Notes: a model not told the origin generated them from the sequence alone. DNA of 10,958 bases from Promethearchaeota archaeon (GCA_019058015.1 JAHLWH010000093.1:1-10958); one strand, 5' to 3'. Counted from the first letter of the stretch, positions 2,665-10,958 are shown. Translations and numbers: made by a program.

Positions 2665-2934
2665 ATGAAACAAAAAACAGAAATCAAAAAGGTTGATTCG
2701 CAAGGTAGGATTGTATTACCACGGGATTGGAGGGAGAAAGTGCTTGGAAACGAAAATGAGGTGATAATAATTAAGGAAGGGGATTTTTTAAAGATAATAC
2801 CAAAAAAAAAAGGAGATTTAACAAAATTTTTTGATACATTGGATTTAAGTGCGGAATTTATTGAAGATCTTGCAGATTGGAACGAATTTGAGAAAAAAAT
2901 GTGGGAAGCGAAATGGAGGAGAGATGAAAAATAA
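2665..2934 (+). CDS. vapB: AbrB/MazE/SpoVT-family DNA-binding antitoxin
   Basis: KVDSQGRIVLPRDWREKV AbrB-fold signature, acidic C-terminal half, directly upstream of a PIN-domain gene. Confidence 0.9.
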   Translation: MKQKTEIKKVDSQGRIVLPRDWREKVLGNENEVIIIKEGDFLKIIPKKKGDLTKFFDTLDLSAEFIEDLADWNEFEKKMWEAKWRRDEK

Positions 2935-3374
2935 TTTATTTAGATGCGAATATTTTTATTTACGCTTATTTTAAAGTAAAAAAGCAGAAACTATCTCAAA
3001 AAATAATATGGATGAAAGAAGAAGCAAAAAAAATCATTCAAATGGTCAATGATGGTAAAGAAGAATTTTGTATTTCTTTAATTCAGTTATCAGAAATTGT
3101 TAATCTCCTTAAATATTCTATGTCATGGGAGCAATTACATTCATTTTTATGGGGTTTGATCTCAAATAATTCTATTGAAATATTAGAGGTATCTAAAATG
3201 ATTTATATTAATTCAATAGATAAAATACCAAAATTTGAAATGGATTCAAATGATATTTCTGCTTATTTATTAATGAAAGAAAAAGGAATAGATCGAATCT
3301 ACACATTTGATAAGAATTTTCGAGAATTAAAAGATATAATTTGCTTGCCTAAAATACCTGATAAATTTAATTAA
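2931..3374 (+). CDS. vapC: PIN-domain ribonuclease toxin; the true N-terminus lies upstream of the ORF-track ATG (3012) and has no canonical start codon
   Basis: The frame is open from 2928 and reads ATA ATT TAT TTA GAT GCG AAT = (I/M)IYLDANIFIY, containing the first PIN catalytic Asp; then QLSEI, DSND and YTFDKNF. ATA at 2931-2933 overlaps the vapB TAA (ATAA). GGAGG lies at 2915-2919. Confidence 0.85.
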   Translation: MIYLDANIFIYAYFKVKKQKLSQKIIWMKEEAKKIIQMVNDGKEEFCISLIQLSEIVNLLKYSMSWEQLHSFLWGLISNNSIEILEVSKMIYINSIDKIPKFEMDSNDISAYLLMKEKGIDRIYTFDKNFRELKDIICLPKIPDKFN

Positions 3375-3490: not shown

Positions 3491-4609
3491 ATGAGAATTA
3501 AGGATTTCAAGTTAGAACAATTTTTTACAAAACATGAATTCACTGCTCCTTATTTATTATGTTGCTCGGATTGTGAATCATTTAGCGTGGGGGAATTATT
3601 AGAATTAGAAGAGAATTCGGAAGAAGAATTAAAAGGATTGTCATTAGGTTATACAGAGACACAAGGTATCCCCCTTCTTAGAAAAGAGATATCCAATTTA
3701 TATAAAAACATAGATCCAGATGATGTAATTGTTCTTTTAGGAGCAGAAGAGGGTATTTTTATTTTTATGAATGTTTTTCTTGATAAAGGGGATCACATTA
3801 TAGTTCAGTATCCCGCTTATCAATCGCTTTTTGAAGTTGCAATCTCAATAGGTTGTGAAGTTACTAAATGGGAAATGAATGAGCAAAATAATTGGGAACT
3901 TGATATTGATTTCTTAAAAAATAGTATTAAAAATAATACTAAAGCGATTGTAATAAATTGTCCAAATAATCCCACCGGCTATTTAATGTCTAAGGAAAAA
4001 TTACAGATGATCATTGATATTGCAAAAAAAAATGACATTTATATTTTCTCTGATGAAGTATATAGATTTTTGGAATATGATGATAAAGATAGGCTTCCAG
4101 CGATGTGTGATATATATAATAAAGGAATTTCTCTTGGAGATATGTCTAAAACATTTGCACTTCCAGGATTAAGAATAGGTTGGATTGCAACTAAGGATAA
4201 ATCCTTAATTAAAAAAGTTATTTCTTTTAAGCATTATACATCAATATGCAATAGTGCGCCAAGCGAATTTTTTTCGATATTAGTTTTAAAGAATAAAGAA
4301 TATGTTATAAAAAGAAATTTAAATCTCATAGAAAATAATCTTAAGTTATTAGATAAATTCTTTAAGGATTATAATCATCTCTTTGCATGGGTAAAACCAC
4401 AAGCAGGCGTAATTGGTTTCCCTCGGATAAAATTTAATGAAGATATTGAAAAATTTTATACTGATTTATTAAATAAAAAAGGCGTTTTATTGATGCCTAG
4501 CACAAATTTTGATTTTGGAGGTAAGCATTTCAGAATTAGGTTTGGTAGAAAAAATATGCCTGAAGCATTAGAAAAATTAGAGAAATACATACAAGAGTAC
4601 TATTTATGA
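3491..4609 (+). CDS. Class I/II PLP-dependent aminotransferase (aspartate aminotransferase fold)
   Basis: GYTETQG, GAEEG, PAYQ, NCPNNPTG, SDEVYR and DMSKTFALPGLRIGW (PLP lysine) motifs, plus C-terminal FRI. Confidence 0.93.
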   Translation: MRIKDFKLEQFFTKHEFTAPYLLCCSDCESFSVGELLELEENSEEELKGLSLGYTETQGIPLLRKEISNLYKNIDPDDVIVLLGAEEGIFIFMNVFLDKGDHIIVQYPAYQSLFEVAISIGCEVTKWEMNEQNNWELDIDFLKNSIKNNTKAIVINCPNNPTGYLMSKEKLQMIIDIAKKNDIYIFSDEVYRFLEYDDKDRLPAMCDIYNKGISLGDMSKTFALPGLRIGWIATKDKSLIKKVISFKHYTSICNSAPSEFFSILVLKNKEYVIKRNLNLIENNLKLLDKFFKDYNHLFAWVKPQAGVIGFPRIKFNEDIEKFYTDLLNKKGVLLMPSTNFDFGGKHFRIRFGRKNMPEALEKLEKYIQEYYL

Positions 4610-4635
4610 AGAAAAAAATTAAAAAAATAAGAACT

Positions 4636-4697
4636 TGAGAAAATTTCTCATTTGTGCTTTTATTTTTACTATTTTGTTGTTTTTTTTTTCGCTTTTT
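4636..4697 (+). terminator. Putative terminator after the aminotransferase: palindrome followed by long T tracts
   Basis: TGAGAAA-A-TTTCTCA at 4636-4650, followed by T-rich sequence including a run of ten T at 4680-4689. Confidence 0.5.
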
Positions 4698-4730
4698 CTA
4701 TATAGAGAATTTCAATAAAAAAAAATGTAA

Positions 4731-4760
4731 AGAAAAAGTTTATTATACTTTATAAAGTAT
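4731..4760 (+). promoter_or_regulatory. Promoter/operator of the kinase cluster: BRE/TATA-like element plus perfect 16-bp palindrome
   Basis: GAAAAAG-TTTATTAT at 4731-4746 overlaps ATACTTTATAAAGTAT (4745-4760), which itself contains TTTATAAA; ribosome-binding site GAGGT at 4791-4795. Confidence 0.55.
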
Positions 4761-4801
4761 TTTTTACTGATAATTAAGATTTAGTTATATGAGGTTTATC
4801 T

Positions 4802-6310
4802 ATGTCCAAAGAAGATGGAATTTTATGTATTGATGTATCTTCTCAAAAAATAAAAGTAGCAATTGTAAGTGAAAATTGTGATATCATAGCAATTGCTGAA
4901 AAAAACTTCTTTTTTAAAAATGATGATATTGAAGGTTTCGCAAAAAGTTATAATACAGATGAGATCTGGAACATCTTGATGAGTTGTATTAAAGATGTAA
5001 TTAGAAAATCTAAAATTAATCCAATGAATATTTTAGGAATTACTTCATGCACTCAAAGACAAGCGTGTGTTTTTCTTTCTGATGAGGGTGAAGTAATATA
5101 TGCTGGTCCAAATTGTGATATACGTGGAATAGATTCACAATATTTAATAGATGATGAGTTTGAAGAAGAAGAACTATTTAATATCACTGGACATAATCCT
5201 CCATTAATATTTCCACTTGCTAGACTCCTATGGTTCCAAGAAGAAAGAGAAGATTTATTTGAAAAAATTGGCAAAGTTTTATTATTTGATGATTGGATTG
5301 TCTATAAGTTAACTGATATCTTTTGTACTGATCCAACTTCTGCAGCTGAATCTCTCATATTTGATGTATCTAAAAGTAAATGGTCTGATAAAATTATTGA
5401 TACATTTGATTTTAATAGAGATCTTTTCCCAGAAATTATTCAAGTTTCAGACATTGTTGGAGATTTAAAGACAGATATAGCCAAGAAATTTAATTTACCC
5501 AAATCCATTCCTGTTGTTAAAACTGGAGCTGATACTCAAGCGAGTTTAATAGGAACTGCATGTATTGAAGATAATCAAATTGGAATTACTATAGGCACAA
5601 CAGCTCCTTTATATCTTGTGGTTAATTCACCCCGCTTAGACCCAAATTTAAATATGTGGACTACACTACATGCCATTAAAGATAAATGGTTAATTGAAAG
5701 TAATACTGGAATGACCGGAAAAATTTATGATTGGTATAAAGATTCATTTCTAAGTGGGTTATCCAATGATTTGGACTCTATTACTGAAAAATATTTATTA
5801 GAAACAGAACCAGGTGCAAATTCTACACTTGCTTTTCTTGGTCCAGAAAGAATGGATATAAATAGTCAAACTAATATTAAACCAGGAGTTTTTATATTAC
5901 CAACTCCAGGTTCAATTTCAGAAATTCTTTCAGACAGAAAAAATTTTTTAAGAGCGATATTTGAAAATATAGGTTTTGGGATTTTAGAAAATTTAATCCA
6001 AATATTAAATTTTGAAAGTAATCATAAAGAGATATTTTTCAGTGGAGGCTTGGCAAACTCAAAAAGTTTTAATCAAATTCTCTCAAATATTTTAAATAAA
6101 GAATTATACCTGCCTAATATCAAAGAATCTGCATTTTCAGGTGAAGCAATCAATGTTTTAATTGGATTAGAATATTATCAGAATTATAGAAATGCAATAA
6201 ATAAACTTGTTAAATTAACTAAGATTAGTCCTGATGAAGATATCGCATTGAAATATGAAAAGATTTATCATCGTTGGAGTCGTATTAAAAAACAACTAAA
6301 ATTTGTGTAG
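4802..6310 (+). CDS. FGGY-family carbohydrate kinase, YoaC / autoinducer-2-kinase (LsrK)-like subgroup
   Basis: 502 aa; TSCTQRQACVFL..GEVIYAGPNCDIRG, ARLLW, DWIVYKLT, TDPTSAAESLIFD, GADTQAS, IGTT, RAIFENI and SGGLANS motifs. Confidence 0.9.
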   Translation: MSKEDGILCIDVSSQKIKVAIVSENCDIIAIAEKNFFFKNDDIEGFAKSYNTDEIWNILMSCIKDVIRKSKINPMNILGITSCTQRQACVFLSDEGEVIYAGPNCDIRGIDSQYLIDDEFEEEELFNITGHNPPLIFPLARLLWFQEEREDLFEKIGKVLLFDDWIVYKLTDIFCTDPTSAAESLIFDVSKSKWSDKIIDTFDFNRDLFPEIIQVSDIVGDLKTDIAKKFNLPKSIPVVKTGADTQASLIGTACIEDNQIGITIGTTAPLYLVVNSPRLDPNLNMWTTLHAIKDKWLIESNTGMTGKIYDWYKDSFLSGLSNDLDSITEKYLLETEPGANSTLAFLGPERMDINSQTNIKPGVFILPTPGSISEILSDRKNFLRAIFENIGFGILENLIQILNFESNHKEIFFSGGLANSKSFNQILSNILNKELYLPNIKESAFSGEAINVLIGLEYYQNYRNAINKLVKLTKISPDEDIALKYEKIYHRWSRIKKQLKFV

Positions 6311-6421
6311 ATTATTCATTAAAAACTATAAAATCCTTTTAAAAATAAATTTTAAAAAATTTAATAATCTTAATTTAATTCTATAAGACGATTAAAAATA
6401 ATTGATCAATTCAAAAATAAG

Positions 6422-6784
6422 ATGAAAAAAAAAATGACTGAAATTAGTACAATCCAAGAAGGATTTAAAATGATAATAGATCGTTATAATTCCGAAGAAA
6501 AAATCAGAAAAAAACTTGCTAATTACGACGAGCCGATCGAACTTACATTTTTAGACAATAATCATAAAGCTATGATTATAGTTAATAAAGATCAAGGAAT
6601 TGAAATAAAAGATAATGTAGGAGATGATAATGCTCTTGTGAAAATTCATTTTGAGTCGGAACAAGTAATGATAGATTTGTTTAATGGAGAAATTGGGGCT
6701 GTTGGTGCATATTCCTCAGGAAAAATTAAAGTAATTGCAGGAAAAATAAGGAATTTGATAAAATTACGGAAATTATTATTTTAA
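6422..6784 (+). CDS. SCP2 sterol/lipid-carrier domain protein
   Basis: 120 aa with the SCP2 C-terminal signature DLFNGEIGAVGAYSSGKIKV.AG.IRNLIKL; start could be ATG 6422 or ATG 6434. Confidence 0.8.
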   Translation: MKKKMTEISTIQEGFKMIIDRYNSEEKIRKKLANYDEPIELTFLDNNHKAMIIVNKDQGIEIKDNVGDDNALVKIHFESEQVMIDLFNGEIGAVGAYSSGKIKVIAGKIRNLIKLRKLLF

Positions 6785-6792
6785 AAAAAAGG

Positions 6793-8487
6793 GTGTATCT
6801 CTTGAAAGCATTAATTACTGCAGAAATTACTGAACCTGAATTAAATAGATTAAAAGAAAGAATAGAAGTTATATATGAACCTTGGAAAGAATCAGGTATA
6901 CTATATTTTGATGAAGATGAACTAATTGAAAAATTAAAAGGAATAGATATTCTCATCAGCGAGGGCGATAATGTAAAGAAAAGAGTAATTGAAGAATCTT
7001 CGCTTAAGATAATCGCCTCCTGTAGAAACGATCCAAATAATATAGATTTTAAAACGGCATCCGAAAAAAGGATACCTGTTATTTATACACCAAAAAGGAA
7101 TTCTGACTCAGTAGCCGATCTGACTCTTTGTTTAATTTTAGCACTCGCAAGAAATCTAACTAAAGTTGATAAATATTTACATTCAGAGGATTTTGAAATA
7201 AATGATTTAGAAGATTGGGTTAGGGATTATAAAAAATTTGAAGGAATTGAGCTTAAAGGTAAGACTATTGGAGTTGTTGGATTTGGCAATATAGGAAAAT
7301 TAGTTGTACAGAGACTGATTCCTTTTGGGGTGAATTTTTTAATCGCTGATCCTTTTGTTGATAAAGAGAAAGTGAAAGAATTTGGAATTCTTGTAGAATT
7401 AAAAGAATTAATGCGTAGATCAGATTTTATAACTTTACATCTTCCCCCAATAGAAGCGACTAATAATTTAATCAATGAAAAAATGATTTCATTAATGAAG
7501 TCCAGTGCTTACTTGATTAATACAGCAAAAGGAAACGTTTTAGATTATAGAGCTTTAAAGAAAGCTTTAATGGATAAAAAAATTGCTGGAGCTGCTCTTG
7601 ACGTTTTCCCTCTAGAACCAATAGATGAAGATAATGAATTTTTAAAATTTGAAAATGTAATAGTGCTACCTCATTATGGTGGAAATACAATTAGTGTTAT
7701 AAAAAGACATTCAAAAATGATTATTGATGATGTGCTATCAATATTAGATAATGAACCACCTAAGAATATAGCAAACCCCGAAGTTTTAGGAAAAATAGGA
7801 AATATTCTTAAAGAAAAAACAGAAGACTCTAATGTTCCATATTATGAATTACGAAAAAAATTAGCAGATGTTGGATTACAATTATTAAAAGAAGGTTTTG
7901 TTTCTGGCTCCTCAGGAAATTTATCTATTAGAATTCCTGATGAAGAAAAAATTGTTATAACTCCAAGTAATGTAAAATATGAATTTATCAAGTCAAAAGA
8001 TATCTTAGTTTTAGATTTTGATGGAAATGTTCTAATTGGTGATAAAAATCCATCAGTTGAAAAAATAATGCACTTAACTATTTATAAAAAACGACCTGAT
8101 GTAGGAGCAATTATCCATTCTCATGGAGTTTACTCAACGGTACTAAGTCTCTTAAATCTTAATATACCACCCGTAATTGAAGAATTTGTTCCATATATTG
8201 GGGGAGAAGTAAAAGTGGCAGAATATGGTGAAGCTGGTTCCGAAGAAATTGCCGAGTATGCACTTAAAGCTTTAGGCGATACAAATGCTGTTATTTTAGC
8301 TAATCATGGAAATCTCTGTTGTGGAAGCCATATAGAAGGAGCATTGGAAGTTTTAAAAATGTTAGAAAGAACCGCTAAAATCTACTTATTTGCTAAATTA
8401 TTAGGCGAACCAAGGGAATTGCCCGAAGATACTGTGGACTATGAGCTTGATGTATTCGAGCTTTTCAAAGAGAGCAAAAAGGTATAA
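6793..8487 (+). CDS. Fusion protein: YoaD-like D-isomer-specific 2-hydroxyacid dehydrogenase (about aa 1-330) plus class II aldolase/adducin domain (FucA-like, about aa 350-564)
   Basis: Dehydrogenase motifs RNSDSVAD, GVVGFGNIG, ADPF, INTAKG, LDVFPLEP, PHYGG; aldolase motifs GSSGNLS, ITPS, PSVE, HSH, NHG. One uninterrupted frame with a linker. The likelier start is TTG at 6802 (MKALITAE), preceded by GGGTG at 6791-6795. Confidence 0.92.
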   Translation: MYLLKALITAEITEPELNRLKERIEVIYEPWKESGILYFDEDELIEKLKGIDILISEGDNVKKRVIEESSLKIIASCRNDPNNIDFKTASEKRIPVIYTPKRNSDSVADLTLCLILALARNLTKVDKYLHSEDFEINDLEDWVRDYKKFEGIELKGKTIGVVGFGNIGKLVVQRLIPFGVNFLIADPFVDKEKVKEFGILVELKELMRRSDFITLHLPPIEATNNLINEKMISLMKSSAYLINTAKGNVLDYRALKKALMDKKIAGAALDVFPLEPIDEDNEFLKFENVIVLPHYGGNTISVIKRHSKMIIDDVLSILDNEPPKNIANPEVLGKIGNILKEKTEDSNVPYYELRKKLADVGLQLLKEGFVSGSSGNLSIRIPDEEKIVITPSNVKYEFIKSKDILVLDFDGNVLIGDKNPSVEKIMHLTIYKKRPDVGAIIHSHGVYSTVLSLLNLNIPPVIEEFVPYIGGEVKVAEYGEAGSEEIAEYALKALGDTNAVILANHGNLCCGSHIEGALEVLKMLERTAKIYLFAKLLGEPRELPEDTVDYELDVFELFKESKKV

Positions 8488-9013: not shown

Positions 9014-10291
9014 TTACACCTCTCTTGGATCAACAATTTTTCCCTTTAATGCGGAAGCAACAGTGGTTGTTGGTGAGGCTAAATATATTTGCGATGTAAT
9101 ATCACCCATTCTCCCAATAAAATTTCTATTCGTAGTACTTATACAAATCTCACTTGGACCCAATACACCTAAATGACCTCCAATACAAGGTCCACAAGTT
9201 GGATTCCCAACTATTGCTCCTGAATTAAGGAAGATTTCAATTTATCCTTCCCTTATGGCTTTTAAATAATTTTCTTGTGAAGCTGGAATAACAATTAATC
9301 TAACATCTGGATGAATTTTTTTATTTTTTAAAATTTGGGCTGCTTGACGCAGATCTTCTAGCCTTCCATTTGTGCAACTACCCAAGAAAGCTTGATCAAT
9401 TTTAATTTCCGGTAATTCTGATACAGGCACTACATTATCAGGACTTGGTGGTTTTGCTACAACAGGCACTATTTGGGATAAATCATAATTAAATTCTTCT
9501 ATATAGACTGCATTATCATCAGGCATTGTAAGTTTATAGTTAGAAATTGACCTTCCTTTTAACCATTCAACTATTTTATTATCCGGTATGAATATTCCAC
9601 TCTTTGCTCCTGCTTCTACTACCATGTTGGAGACTGTCATTCGAGAATCAATAGAGAGAGATTTAACCCCATCTCCATGAAACTCCATAGATTTATATTC
9701 TGCACCACCGATTGAAAGATCTCTAATTATTTGCAAGATTAAATCTTTAGACATTACTTTTTCTCTTAATTGTCCTTTAAGGGAGAACTTTTGTGTTTCA
9801 GGAACCATAAACCATAATTTTCCTGTTGCAAACACCACCGACACGTCGGTTGCACCAATACCGGTCGAGAAACAATTGAAAGCTCCATATGTTGTTGTAT
9901 GGCTATCTGACCCAACAATTAGCATTCCAGGTCTTGCGAAACCTAATTCTGGTAAAACTTGATGGCATATTCCCTTATCCATACCAATATCATGTTTAAA
10001 TTTATATTTTTTGGCAAATTTTCGACAATCTTGGTGCATTTTAGCTGCTTCTATTGAAGGTGCCGGAACCCAATGGTCAAGAATAAAGAATATTTTATCT
10101 GGATCCCATACTTTATCGAGCTCGAGTTTTTCATATTCCTTATGGATGCGTCCACCAATTTGCTCATGAACCATAACAAGATCGATATCTGCTTCAATAA
10201 ATTCTCCAGGTGACACTGATTTGTTGGAGGAATGTTCGCTTAAAATCTTCTCAGCAATGGTTTTTCCAGAATTTTCAGTCAATAATTTCAC
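9014..10291 (-). pseudogene. leuC: 3-isopropylmalate dehydratase large subunit (LeuC/HacA family) interrupted by an in-frame TAA at 9244-9242 (nonsense allele or sequence error)
   Basis: TIAEKIL, DHWVP, GICHQ, GSDSHTTTYGA and GSCTNGR motifs. After AIREG* the same frame continues [27 protein letters not shown]...[12 protein letters not shown]...YLASP...GKIVDPREV* to 9014, giving 425 codons before the natural stop. Confidence 0.88.
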
Positions 10292-10328: not shown

Positions 10329-10958
10329 TTAGCTATAAAATCTTTTCAATACTCTTAGTGCGTTCAAAGTATTCCATTTGCTTAATTTTCCTTTTCGTTC
10401 AATACTTGTTTGAAAACGTCCATTGAATATTCGTTCCATTTTCCATTTACCCTCATTATCTTGTTTTTTAATCACAAGATCAATAGCATCTTGCATTCTC
10501 TCATCATTGTAACCTAAATTAAGTAAGATTTCCAACATCTCCAAGGCATCAGTTTGCCATAGTCGAGGAAATCCAAAAATTATCCAGTCTTTGTGGGCAA
10601 TTTGAGACAAATCATGACTTTTTTTATAGAGATGATGATTAAACAAGTAGTCAACTGATTTTTCAATCGTATTTTTAATACTTTTGGAGCGTTTATTTGG
10701 AGGAATTTCTGCGAGTGCCTTTAATGTCTTTACTATACCCATGTGGCATGTGTGTGTTCCCCAACATTTTTCATATCTATAAGGCCAACCTTGTGGAGCT
10801 TCTACTATTCCATCATCAAAACGTTGATATTGTACAAACCAGTCAATTGCTTTTTGAATTCGTGGGTCATCTAAATAACCAAATCTAATCATAGTCCAAA
10901 CCATATTACCGGTTAAGAATGGAATTATTGCATCACGGTTACCTCCATTATTGAAATC
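10329..10958 (-). CDS. Partial CDS (5' end outside window): alpha/alpha-barrel prenyltransferase/terpene-cyclase-like repeat protein of unknown function
   Basis: The frame stays open past the ORF-track ATG (10904) to the edge: DFNNGGNRDAIIPFLTGNMVW. It has QW-like repeats (KAIDWFVQYQRFDDG, DAIDLVIKKQDNEGKW) plus FGFP.WQTDALE and SKWNTL.ALRVLK. Confidence 0.75.
   Translation of the reverse strand, partial: DFNNGGNRDAIIPFLTGNMVWTMIRFGYLDDPRIQKAIDWFVQYQRFDDGIVEAPQGWPYRYEKCWGTHTCHMGIVKTLKALAEIPPNKRSKSIKNTIEKSVDYLFNHHLYKKSHDLSQIAHKDWIIFGFPRLWQTDALEMLEILLNLGYNDERMQDAIDLVIKKQDNEGKWKMERIFNGRFQTSIERKGKLSKWNTLNALRVLKRFYS

Follow-up and report, generated by a model that had tools for sequence, protein, structure and literature searches.

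Among the closest described systems is the DHAP shunt (DrdK-DrdI-DrdA; MtnK/MtnP-MtnA-Ald2), which disposes of 5-deoxyribose and methylthioribose by phosphorylating a SAM-derived 5-substituted ribose unit and turning it into a ribulose-1-phosphate, and in which a FucA-fold class II aldolase yields DHAP and an aldehyde. The L-fucose and L-rhamnose routes of E. coli (FucK-FucA-FucO/AldA; RhaB-RhaD) likewise combine an FGGY kinase with a class II aldolase that releases DHAP and an aldehyde, the latter being oxidised or reduced subsequently. The AI-2 kinase LsrK (PDB 5ya0) acts on a terminal CH2OH beside a CHOH, while SCPx/MFE-2 and the alkylsulfatase SdsA1 have catalytic domains with an attached SCP2 domain, which presents the hydrophobic substrate. 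The yoaDCB genes of Bacillus subtilis form an S-box operon for a dehydrogenase of the D-2-hydroxyacid dehydrogenase family, an FGGY kinase and a permease, to our knowledge without an aldolase or an SCP2 protein. In the portion of the published account that touches on it, a role for yoaDCB in cysteine degradation is put forward as speculation (PMC2885750).

The window analysed here, the whole stretch of 10,958 nucleotides (JAHLWH010000093.1:1-10958), comes from an Asgard archaeon (Promethearchaeota) from sediments. As described in an earlier note on this DNA, positions 4802-8487 of the plus strand contain three co-oriented ORFs, encoding an FGGY kinase, a 120-aa protein of SCP2 fold and a fusion of a D-2-hydroxyacid dehydrogenase with a class II aldolase (Table 1). 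The region 5' of the kinase gene is probably that gene's own promoter region. The real start of the fusion gene is probably the TTG at 6802, since this codon gives MKALITA as in the orthologs and has GGGTG before it.

Table 1. Features of the kinase-SCP2-dehydrogenase-aldolase locus in the window.
Feature	Position	Strand	Basis
AT-rich intergenic region, 5' of kinase	4610..4801	+	read from sequence
FGGY-family kinase, 502 aa	4802..6310	+	Pfam FGGY_N/FGGY_C, LsrK-sister clade in tree
SCP2-fold small protein, 120 aa, soluble form	6422..6784	+	ortholog profile, AlphaFold model, Foldseek
Fusion ORF, 564 aa	6793-8487	+	2-Hacid_dh_C, 2-Hacid_dh, Aldolase_II (Pfam)
D-isomer 2-hydroxyacid dehydrogenase domain, residues 1-335	6793..7797	+	Pfam, kept residues, tree
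Class II (FucA-type, zinc) aldolase domain, residues 350-564	7840..8487	+	Pfam, Zn ligands, PDB matches

The kinase is a member of the FGGY family by both Pfam domains (FGGY_N, PF00370, 6.9e-47, 160.5 bits against a cut-off of 28.8; FGGY_C, PF02782, 3.3e-8, 34 bits against 27). LsrK is its top NCBIfam match (NF008187, 220.7 bits, under the cut-off of 528) as well as its best PDB match (5ya0, 8.6e-40), and an FGGY tree of 53 rows places the module kinases and E. coli LsrK as sister groups in a joint clade with an SH-aLRT of 99, apart from XylB, LyxK, FucK, RhaB, AraB and GlpK. The protein was therefore rightly called LsrK-like, since scores and tree alike make LsrK its closest characterised relative. 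Identification as the xylulokinase XylB (TIGR01312, 205.7 bits against 380.25) or as a fuculokinase (TIGR02628, 121.2 bits against 470.9) was rejected, as the tree also separates the protein from both of these E. coli enzymes, and so was identification as a true LsrK, given the equivalog cut-off and a position beside the E. coli LsrK clade rather than within it. Asgard and bacterial module kinases form a single group with LsrK as its sister; the identity between them is only some 25-31%, so their substrates may differ. The kinase is proposed to act on a polyol tail, phosphorylating its terminal CH2OH.

The N-terminal part of the fusion matches 2-Hacid_dh_C (PF02826, 3.1e-52, 177 bits, residues 113-296) and 2-Hacid_dh (PF00389, 1.1e-16, 61.2 bits) in Pfam, and keeps His292, Glu269, Asp264, the GxGxxG motif and Asp181 in E. 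coli SerA numbering; the SerA anion residues R60, R62 and K141 are absent. In a tree with E. coli references only, the module dehydrogenases form a single group away from SerA, GhrB and PdxB, and kinase-linked dehydrogenases of several systems cluster together. SerA itself (TIGR01327, 221.4 bits against 454, with the three anion residues lost and a separate position in the tree) and glyoxylate reductase (NF009714, 207 bits against 455, apart from E. coli GhrB) were rejected as identities. The grouping with SerA, xylulokinase or fuculokinase clades that the earlier note had weighed is thus not seen for the dehydrogenase, nor for the module kinases, which fall outside the XylB and FucK branches. 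D-2-hydroxyacid dehydrogenases normally require a carboxylate, and the substrate- or carboxylate-binding Arg240 (SerA numbering) is Lys in type A, the window's type, and Arg in the other types. For these reasons the polyol-phosphate oxidation that we propose below would be without precedent in the family.

The C-terminal part matches Aldolase_II (PF00596, 4.8e-47, residues 356-532 of the fusion). All module rows retain the FucA zinc ligands H92, H94 and H155, together with Glu73 and the phosphate-binding Gly-Asn pair, G28 and N29; S71 is kept in the aldolase domain, and Y113 is replaced by Glu or Asp in module rows. The catalytic Glu of the FucA type is present, as opposed to the Asp of epimerases, which places the domain with the class II proteins of aldolase type, and its PDB matches include FucA (4c24, 6.2e-39) and 6btd of B. 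thuringiensis (1.7e-36). No equivalog cut-off was reached among the FucA (NF005302, 166.4 bits against 264), DrdA, Ru1P aldolase (NF053831, 148.1 against 300) and OtnC decarboxylase (NF043034, 123.5 against 250) models, and the aldolase parts of the module fall into two groups with an unresolved backbone, which may be of more than one origin. With the zinc ligands and the FucA-type Glu kept in the aldolase, and the His, Glu and Asp residues and the NAD motif kept in the dehydrogenase, the two domains are putative active enzymes.

A tetronate-type sugar-acid route could use the same protein families: the dehydrogenase would act on a hydroxy-acid, the kinase would follow, and an aldolase-fold decarboxylase like OtnC/3OtnC would lead to DHAP or pentulose phosphate. 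We regard this as improbable. It has in its favour that 2-hydroxy acids are the usual substrates of the dehydrogenase family, that the aldolase domain has a match to the OtnC model, and that type A loci have the additional Aldolase_II and TIM barrel genes described in the last paragraph; against this, the tetronate kinases known to us are all DUF1537 proteins and none is FGGY, no OtnI-type isomerase is linked in the module, and type A has lost the carboxylate-binding Arg to Lys. The route also leaves the SCP2 protein and the lipid context unexplained, and the aldehyde oxidoreductase and dehydrogenase neighbours described below imply an aldehyde product. The dehydrogenase-kinase-decarboxylase logic on which it draws is that of Ltn3D-3OtnK-3OtnC, as set out in the relevant part of the source (PMC12994016).

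The 120-aa protein of the window lies under the gathering cut-off of Pfam SCP2 (PF02036; 13.7 bits against 21.3, E 0.082). Its orthologs, however, score from 28.6 (L029) to 47.2 bits against the same model, a profile of 22 orthologs finds the SCP2 structures of man and rabbit among PDB entries (E 3e-5), and the top Foldseek PDB matches of the AlphaFold model (pLDDT 88.3) are exclusively domains of SCP2 or SCP2-like type (E 5.5e-6, prob 1.0), with matches to SCP2 domains of the SCPx/MFE-2/SdsA1 kind. On these grounds we conclude that the protein has the SCP2 fold and belongs to the SCP2 family, as had been suggested before. It is proposed to be a carrier for the hydrophobic portion of the substrate or product. 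The type A protein is soluble; in all 13 of the long Asgard SCP2 proteins one or two N-terminal TM-like segments and a charged linker precede a C-terminal SCP2 domain, and in one Asgard type the SCP2 protein is, by prediction, membrane-anchored.

At 39 of 41 Asgard loci the kinase gene adjoins the dehydrogenase/aldolase gene (19 of 20 in a first set of loci, 19 of 20 in a second), and an SCP2-like ORF is found at 38 of the 41, the window included. Within Asgard the module spans six families, in which gene orders vary and parts are fused, split or reshuffled. Many bacteria have instead a single protein of ~1300 aa in the order kinase-dehydrogenase-SCP2-aldolase: FGGY, 2-Hacid_dh, SCP2 and Aldolase_II occurred in one chain in 5 of the 11 long kinase relatives scanned, and one ORF matched kinase, dehydrogenase and aldolase at no fewer than 27 of 80 bacterial loci. 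Linkage of the parts is far above chance, and the module, carried by many phyla in many habitats, is not confined to Asgard. The Asgard and bacterial kinases, dehydrogenases and SCP2 parts are homologous, since the kinases form one group, the dehydrogenases form one group and the Asgard SCP2 protein matches its counterpart in the four-domain proteins of bacteria in profile-profile comparison (95.4% probability, E 2e-8). The window's own module has the four parts adjacent or fused and a kinase in the LsrK-sister clade. Together, the Asgard adjacency counts, the varied orders, splits and fusions and the bacterial one-chain proteins argue that the three genes are a functional unit. The linkage foreseen by the earlier note thus recurs in other genomes, and its view of the fusion as a Rosetta-stone clue proves stronger than claimed, all four parts being joined in bacteria. 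A literature search found no paper on a kinase-SCP2-dehydrogenase-aldolase module and, with three of the four terms covered, no report of SCP2 joined to kinase, dehydrogenase or aldolase partners. We conclude that the three-gene set is a real, widely conserved and undescribed family.

It can be seen that the module shares with the DHAP shunt an aldolase that matches 6btd and the Ru1P-aldolase model (148 bits), whereas its kinase is FGGY rather than of MtnK/APH type, there is no MtnA-type isomerase, so that the keto group would come from a D-2-hydroxyacid dehydrogenase, an SCP2 lipid carrier takes part and the aldolase is under every equivalog cut-off. From the fucose and rhamnose routes it differs in a kinase outside the FucK and RhaB branches, in having no sugar isomerase, and in the addition of the dehydrogenase and SCP2 protein. 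With yoaDCB it shares the pairing of a gene of the D-2-hydroxyacid dehydrogenase family with an FGGY kinase gene.

Our main reading, to which we give a probability of about 0.5, is that the three genes work together as a single catabolic module for an amphiphile with a terminal polyol, from which DHAP is released, with bacteriohopanepolyol as the leading candidate substrate. What follows on substrate, step order and pathway direction is inferred. The SCP2 protein would hold the hydrophobic part of a molecule whose head has four adjacent oxygenated carbons; the LsrK-like kinase would phosphorylate the terminal primary hydroxyl, and the NAD-dependent dehydrogenase domain would oxidise the adjacent secondary hydroxyl to give a ketose-1-phosphate-like head. 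The zinc aldolase domain would then cut the C3-C4 bond to give DHAP, which could enter central metabolism, and a lipid aldehyde, to be converted to the acid by an aldehyde:ferredoxin oxidoreductase (AFOR) or, in aerobes, by an aldehyde dehydrogenase (ALDH). In bacteriohopanepolyols the candidate head is the tetrol side chain (C32-C35), a 5'-deoxyribose-derived C5 unit, whose cleavage would yield DHAP and leave the hopanoid as a C32 aldehyde or acid. BHT once oxidised and phosphorylated would be a 5-substituted D-ribulose-1-phosphate, and DrdA/Ald2-type class II aldolases cleave that head.

The neighbourhoods bear on the nature of both product and substrate. AFOR was the commonest of the shared neighbours, occurring at 10 bacterial and 12 Asgard loci (22 of 120), and ALDH was a neighbour at 5 bacterial loci, which suggests an aldehyde product. 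Bacterial neighbours also included P450s (12 loci), acyl-CoA synthetases (11), acyl-CoA dehydrogenases (7), a KshA-like Rieske protein (5), thiolase, CoA-transferase and a CasG-like steroid-24-oyl-CoA synthetase (617.6 bits, under its cut-off of 750), and a GH2 glycosidase that ends in an SCP2 domain is a further neighbour of the module. Together with the anchored SCP2 proteins, these neighbours (P450s, acyl-CoA enzymes, Rieske, GH2-SCP2 and CasG-like proteins) point to a lipid-linked polyol substrate. The earlier idea of a kinase-redox-aldolase route from a hydrophobic polyol or SAM-derived C5 compound to DHAP and an aldehyde fits the aldehyde oxidoreductases, the anchored SCP2 and the hopanoid genes described below. 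AI-2/DPD, also named then, is not favoured, as no lsr-type genes (LsrR, LsrACDB, LsrF or LsrG) lie near the window's module and the SCP2 protein and lipid context speak against it.

The substrate might alternatively be small and soluble (a pentitol, tetritol, deoxy-sugar alcohol, 5-deoxyribose-type or AI-2/DPD-like compound), cleaved to DHAP and glycolaldehyde, acetaldehyde or lactaldehyde, with SCP2 as a mere scaffold. LsrK as nearest characterised kinase and the sub-threshold FucA, DrdA and Ru1P-aldolase matches would suit such a compound, and AFORs oxidise small aldehydes too. A SorC-type regulator lies upstream of the module in Bellilinea, and SCP2-less dehydrogenase, FGGY and aldolase sets (L142, L144) sit with SorC regulators and ABC uptake genes, suggesting that the core chemistry serves soluble substrates as well. 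The kinases of these SorC/ABC loci are, however, LyxK-like and outside the module clade in the FGGY tree, no isomerase or sugar transporter is conserved by the module in the Asgard loci, and elsewhere in the host genome a RhaB-like kinase is already paired with a FucA-like aldolase. Taken with the prevalence of SCP2 in Asgard loci and bacterial fusions, its anchoring in every long form, and the P450, acyl-CoA and hpn neighbours, this makes a soluble substrate unlikely in our view.

The only substrate-specific neighbours found were hopanoid genes (SHC, HpnA, HpnH, HpnB, HpnG-like). One four-domain gene (L083) lies within an hpn cluster with all four neighbours above cut-offs (SHC 774.8, HpnB 389, HpnA 446.4 and HpnH 541.7 bits), and another (L095) is near an SHC gene (555 bits); SHC is present at 2 of 80 bacterial loci and an HpnA-family gene is next to the module at 7 of the 80. 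There were no hopanoid genes in the window and none over cut-off (SHC, HpnH, HpnG, HpnA) in the Asgard loci; the host genome has no SHC and no HpnA above cut-off, and SHC was found in 0 of 5 and 1 of 5 of the carrier genomes checked. These absences count against a hopanoid substrate. The scarcity of SHC among carriers, the spread of the module over phyla and habitats, and a class III aminotransferase and M28 hydrolase co-operonic with it at 6 bacterial loci would accord with the same mechanism acting on another amphiphile whose head is a polyol or amino-polyol, such as alkyl tetrols, lipids with a ribityl or ribosyl link, or transaminated long-chain bases of phytosphingosine type. We consider this quite unlikely, as the substrate-specific neighbours are hopanoid alone and no sphingolipid gene was present in the loci scanned. 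The function of HpnA itself is given as unproven in the section of the source that deals with it (PMC5462960).

The position of L083 among hopanoid biosynthesis genes would also suit a biosynthetic module, in which hopanoid producers would run the aldolase as a condensing enzyme, extending a lipid aldehyde by a polyol side chain or remodelling that chain; that part of the same source names no known enzyme for the step from ribosylhopane to BHT (PMC5462960). Such a role is highly improbable: most carriers checked are without SHC, and the ATP-using kinase and AFOR/ALDH and acyl-CoA neighbours suit breakdown. Moreover, the known hopanoid side chain arises from adenosylhopane via HpnH and HpnG.

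We offer tentatively a more doubtful proposal, in which this module lets Asgard archaea, along with many bacteria of sediments and soils, draw carbon from bacterial hopanoids. It would then be the missing enzyme system through which bacteriohopanepolyols lose their C33-C35 unit as DHAP and become C32 hopanoid aldehydes and acids, and an enzymatic source of the C32 hopanoic acids and hopanols dominant in young sediments. It would also be the first hopanoid catabolic step described, in Asgard with a dedicated and sometimes membrane-tethered SCP2 carrier.

At type A loci the neighbours of the module are housekeeping genes only (PyrC, a TrmY-like protein and AMMECR1), which, with the soluble SCP2 protein of this type, speaks against the main reading. 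The upstream aminotransferase neighbour is not at L023 and is restricted to the window's genus (the window, L021 and L022). An Aldolase_II paralog and a xylose-isomerase-like TIM barrel protein are encoded 6-8 kb from the module at type A loci.

The earlier note had read the FGGY kinase, the SCP2-fold protein and the dehydrogenase-aldolase fusion as parts of one candidate pathway, and their genes proved to be linked in other Asgard genomes. Among 40 loci retrieved in two sets of 20 (41 loci with the window), the kinase gene adjoins the dehydrogenase/aldolase gene in 19 of the 20 loci of each set, the exceptions being a 2.9-kb contig in the first and locus L051 in the second. A profile search detected an SCP2-like ORF in 38 of the 41 loci, including the window, and none in L051, L054 and L009. 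The order seen in the window, kinase, SCP2 and fusion all on the same strand, is termed here type A; in type B loci a divergent kinase gene is followed by a long SCP2 protein and the fusion; family f26 has the order SCP2, aldolase, kinase, dehydrogenase and family f11 the order SCP2, dehydrogenase, kinase, aldolase. As the linkage survives these reshuffled gene orders, the module parts are likely to act together.

The fusion is full-length in 20 of 41 genomes of the same order and is split into two adjoining genes in a further genome, G012. Across the phylum, 73 of 301 sampled genomes gave a match at E <= 1e-90, and two Asgard families in this sample have only an unfused dehydrogenase of ~340 aa. 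More than 100 relatives of the fusion protein share 53-99% identity at equal length, and those with a named source come from Promethearchaeota/Lokiarchaeota, Heimdall-, Hod-, Hermod- and Thorarchaeota MAGs. The window itself (G+C ~28%) is contig C85 of a 3.84 Mb Asgard genome that is 94% complete, and near-identical DNA occurs in metagenomes of sediments, salt marshes and vents, which come from some ten studies in addition to the possible source; no RNA data set was listed with a match to 4802-8487. The gap between the SCP2 and fusion genes is only 8 bases; since orthologs of the fusion begin MKALITA, its real start is probably the TTG at 6802, which is preceded in the window by GGGTG.

Predicted features of the window
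Feature	Position	Strand	Size	Remarks
ARMT1-type phosphatase	elsewhere in window			
HD protein gene	elsewhere in window			
VapB(AbrB)/PIN toxin-antitoxin pair	2665-3374			between HD gene and aminotransferase
Class I/II aminotransferase	3491-4609			PRK07324-like, 318.6 bits, below cut-off; also GntC/VioD-like
FGGY kinase	4802-6310	+	502 aa	
SCP2-fold ORF	6422-6784	+	120 aa	
Dehydrogenase-aldolase fusion ORF	6793-8487	+	564 aa	
D-isomer 2-hydroxyacid dehydrogenase part of fusion	residues 7-328			Pfam
Class II aldolase part of fusion	residues 356-532			Pfam
LeuD/LeuC-type dehydratase pair	LeuC/HacA-type large subunit within 9014-10291	-		
Gene with weak squalene-hopene-cyclase C-terminal repeats	10329-10958	-		17.3 bits, below cut-off

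Taken alone, the window's SCP2-fold protein scores 13.7 bits against Pfam SCP2, below the cut-off of 21.3. Its orthologs lie above this cut-off (28.6 to 47.2 bits), a profile of 22 of them matches PDB entries for human and rabbit SCP2 (E 3e-5), and the top of the Foldseek list for its AlphaFold model (pLDDT 88.3) holds only SCP2 proteins and SCP2-like domains (E from 5.5e-6), including Thermus SCP2, AF1534, alkylsulfatase C-terminal domains, UbiJ-SCP2 and MFE-2 SCP2L. For these reasons we regard its predicted identity as an SCP2 protein as settled at the level of sequence and model. In type B loci the SCP2 domain forms the C-terminal end of a 256-314-aa protein, and in all 13 such proteins the N-terminus carries one or two hydrophobic, TM-like segments, after which comes a charged linker. 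Complex prediction for the SCP2 protein and the dehydrogenase-aldolase fusion, from their own alignments, gave a score of 0.00 (mark 0.32), which speaks neither for nor against binding. One SCP2 homolog is counted in MK-D1 in the accessible text of an Asgard lipid-transfer preprint (PMC12139934).

When the kinase was used as a HMMER query, 489 representatives were retrieved at E <= 1e-30. Of 11 long relatives, five (1285-1485 aa) carry FGGY, 2-Hacid_dh, SCP2 and Aldolase_II domains in that order according to Pfam, and the others combine kinase and dehydrogenase, with or without SCP2, or kinase and aldolase. By source name these long proteins belong to Chloroflexota, Actinomycetota and Syntrophaceae/Smithellaceae MAGs, and their automatic name is 'AI-2 kinase'. 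In a profile-profile comparison the Asgard SCP2 profile aligned with residues 956-1062 of the four-domain proteins (probability 95.4%, E 2e-8). An alignment of seven four-domain proteins, searched against species-representative genomes, found at least 543 relatives among 600 pattern stretches, of which 80 loci, all bacterial, were kept. The kept carriers include the cultured Bellilinea caldifistulae, many Anaerolineae, Myxococcota, 'delta proteobacteria', Spirochaetales, Binatia, Halioglobus, Thermoleophilia and Actinomycetota. At least 27 of the 80 loci have a single ORF that matches kinase, dehydrogenase and aldolase alike, and others show every partial fusion; the bacterial fusion and neighbour counts are lower bounds, ORF calling being crude in high-GC loci such as L082, L085 and L087. 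Carriers of the module include Asgard archaea, Chloroflexota, Myxococcota, Desulfobacterota-type 'delta' lineages, Actinomycetota, Spirochaetota, Binatia and Gammaproteobacteria.

It can be seen from an FGGY tree that all 34 module kinases, Asgard and bacterial, group together and form with their sister, E. coli LsrK, a clade (SH-aLRT 99) that leaves outside XylB, LyxK, GlpK, FucK, RhaB, AraB and the six other FGGY paralogs of the window's genome. Likewise, the kinase-linked dehydrogenases cluster together (SH-aLRT 95), with E. coli SerA, PdxB and GhrB falling outside, and both the Asgard and the bacterial four-domain subclades lie within this cluster. The aldolase parts fall into two groups on a backbone without resolution, and the tree gave no support for their monophyly. 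Every module part scores below the curated cut-offs of all characterised NCBIfam equivalogs. The aldolase domain retains three zinc histidines, the Gly-Asn phosphate site and FucA-type Glu73, in place of which epimerases have Asp; the position of FucA Tyr113 is Glu or Asp. In SerA numbering, the dehydrogenase retains His292, Glu269, Asp264, the GxGxxG motif and NAD-type Asp181, Lys replaces the substrate residue Arg240 in type A but not in the other types, and none of the anion-binding Arg60, Arg62 and Lys141 is present. Loci L142, L144, L146 and L135, which came from a dehydrogenase-based pattern scan, were rejected as module members and assigned to other systems because in the tree their kinases fall with LyxK or XylB; L154 is LsrK proper. 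The 25-hydroxysteroid kinase of anaerobic sterol degradation, as described in the accessible text of PMC8449060, is unrelated, being of the phosphotransferase (APH) family.

From the chemistry of these families, the LsrK-like kinase would phosphorylate a terminal CH2OH beside a CHOH, the dehydrogenase would oxidise the carbon beside the resulting CH2OP to give a ketose-1-phosphate, and the FucA-type aldolase would release DHAP and an aldehyde. SerA likewise oxidises the carbon beside CH2OP in 3-phosphoglycerate. After the ORFs from 119 loci had been clustered and the recurring clusters assigned names, the neighbour most often found in both domains of life proved to be aldehyde:ferredoxin oxidoreductase (AFOR; 22 of 120 loci, 10 bacterial and 12 Asgard); aldehyde dehydrogenase occurs in at least five bacterial loci. 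The presence of such aldehyde-oxidising enzymes argues for release of DHAP and an aldehyde. Also recurrent, in bacterial loci unless stated otherwise, were cytochrome P450 (at least 12 loci), SDR (at least 13 loci), acyl-CoA synthetase (at least 11, one Asgard), enoyl-CoA hydratase (at least eight, four Asgard), acyl-CoA dehydrogenases (at least seven), thiolase-like proteins and family III CoA-transferase (at least six each) and a KshA-like Rieske oxygenase (at least five), along with bacterial TetR regulators and a TonB receptor; one neighbour resembles the steroid-24-oyl-CoA synthetase CasG (617.6 bits, below the cut-off of 750). That the aldehyde would be hydrophobic is suggested by the SCP2 protein with its membrane anchor and by the neighbours of lipid catabolism. 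Two loci (L123:14033-16195 and L078) encode, directly downstream of the four-domain gene, a GH2 glycosidase whose C-terminus is an SCP2 domain (23.5 bits, over the cut-off), which hints at a glycosylated lipid as substrate.

Several points weigh against a lipid polyol as substrate. Identity between Asgard and bacterial module kinases is only ~25-31% and the aldolase tree lacks resolution, both of which weaken the proposed mechanism, as does the usual need of the dehydrogenase family for a carboxylate. A soluble substrate would be used by what we consider a cousin of the module in L142 and L144 (Ornatilinea and Leptolinea), an SCP2-less set in the order SorC regulator, ABC uptake, xylose-isomerase-like TIM barrel, Zn-ADH, Cys/Met PLP enzyme, LyxK-like FGGY kinase, class II aldolase and dehydrogenase; that such sets exist with ABC uptake counts against the lipid mechanism, although their kinases are LyxK-like, and they may be closer to yoaDC-type systems. 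For the window's own type A the lipid reading is further weakened because the SCP2 protein is soluble and the neighbours are housekeeping only. The type A genes upstream of the kinase (Methyltrn_RNA_2, Amidohydro_1 and AMMECR1) had been considered as a link to adenosyl-lipid deamination, which was ruled out by their identities: they encode a TrmY-like protein, a dihydroorotase (309.7 bits, over the cut-off) and AMMECR1, and are housekeeping synteny. On balance, we give the lipid-polyol mechanism a probability of about 0.5.

A few bacterial loci point to a particular lipid. In L083, from a 'delta proteobacterium' MAG, the four-domain gene (1328 aa) is embedded in a canonical hopanoid (hpn) cluster with genes for a squalene synthase-like protein, squalene-hopene cyclase (774.8 bits, cut-off 431), HpnB (389, cut-off 379), HpnA (446.4, cut-off 367.65), HpnH (541.7, cut-off 225), an HpnG-like protein (169.7, cut-off 187) and an HpnM-like protein. 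In L095 (Spirochaetales) the genes near the module include Dxr and a cyclase that scores 555 bits. Bacteriohopanetetrol (BHT) has as its side chain (C32-C35) a tetrol derived from the ribose of 5'-deoxyadenosyl; after the kinase and dehydrogenase steps BHT would become a 5-substituted D-ribulose-1-phosphate, cleavage of which would yield a C32 hopanoid aldehyde. Such a head is the target of DrdA/Ald2-type aldolases of the DHAP shunt. An HpnA-family gene adjoins the module in seven of the 80 bacterial loci, and in six of these it belongs to an operon of GntR, AFOR, class III aminotransferase, M28 hydrolase, HpnA and module; HpnA, whose role is unproven, has been suggested for the ribosylhopane-to-BHT step (PMC5462960). 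Module carriers are mostly not hopanoid producers, and no cyclase over the cut-off was found in five of five Anaerolineales-type genomes, four of five 'type II' genomes or the window's own genome. Nor were hpn genes found in any Asgard locus examined, which weakens the hopanoid and lipid readings alike, and we consider hopanoids, the leading candidate lipid, somewhat less likely than not to be the substrate in this archaeon. Three conserved genes (clusters c74, c75 and c76; one S9/alpha-beta hydrolase and two without family) flank the four-domain gene both in L083 (5427-7572 and 14043-15164) and in L100.

A literature search of main texts outside subscription journals found no publication on the module, none combining three of FGGY, SCP2, class II aldolase and 2-hydroxyacid dehydrogenase, and nothing on such a module in work on hopanoid degradation or catabolism, HpnA, bishomohopanoic acid or bacteriohopanetetrol. 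In the accessible parts of two sources, a class II aldolase appears in another context in a Hodarchaeales microcompartment preprint (PMC12747264), and what is said of YoaC and YoaD is a guess only (PMC2885750). If the lipid-polyol mechanism is true, the module would represent an unrecognised and very widespread degradation of lipid polyol tails, would extend DHAP shunt logic beyond small SAM by-products to membrane lipids, would assign a function to an SCP2 protein of the archaea that are most closely related to eukaryotes and could account for trimming of hopanoid biomarkers in early diagenesis. It is readily testable, as the genes are short and their products soluble, B. caldifistulae is in culture, and DHAP, NADH and lipid aldehyde are easily measured. 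The module may also guide study of dehydrogenase and FGGY pairs such as yoaDC.

Other genes were noted around the module. In eight type A loci (L028:10725-12680, L029:9993-11951, L063:10882-12924 and five more Asgard loci) a DHDPS/DapA-like barrel fused to an APH-type kinase (~650-680 aa) is encoded just downstream of the dehydrogenase-aldolase gene, and may be part of the same pathway. In several type A loci (for example L026:4209-5732 and L059:17926-19452) another, unfused Aldolase_II paralog sits beside a xylose-isomerase-like TIM-barrel gene at a distance of 6-8 kb from the module; in the aldolase tree this paralog makes up a separate clade. Elsewhere in the window's own genome (L045, C216:32508-36230), genes for a FucA-like aldolase and a RhaB-like rhamnulokinase, which scores 321.7 bits to E. 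coli RhaB, form a divergent pair and probably represent a classical deoxy-hexose route. Within the window, the aminotransferase gene is found upstream of the kinase only in its genus (the window, L021 and L022, not L023). The gene with squalene-cyclase repeats, whose L021 ortholog is 334 aa, is likewise a neighbour in this genus only. The VapB/PIN pair occupies the same place in L022 and would be a recent insertion or loss, since it is missing there in the same-genus L021. The LeuC/HacA-type subunit has an in-frame TAA at 9242-9244 on the minus strand (AIREG*IEIF vs AIREGLIEIF in the L021 ortholog, which has Leu), leaving an ORF of 349 rather than 425 aa with the frame beyond intact; the stop may mark a pseudogene, a recoded codon or a variant of the assembly.
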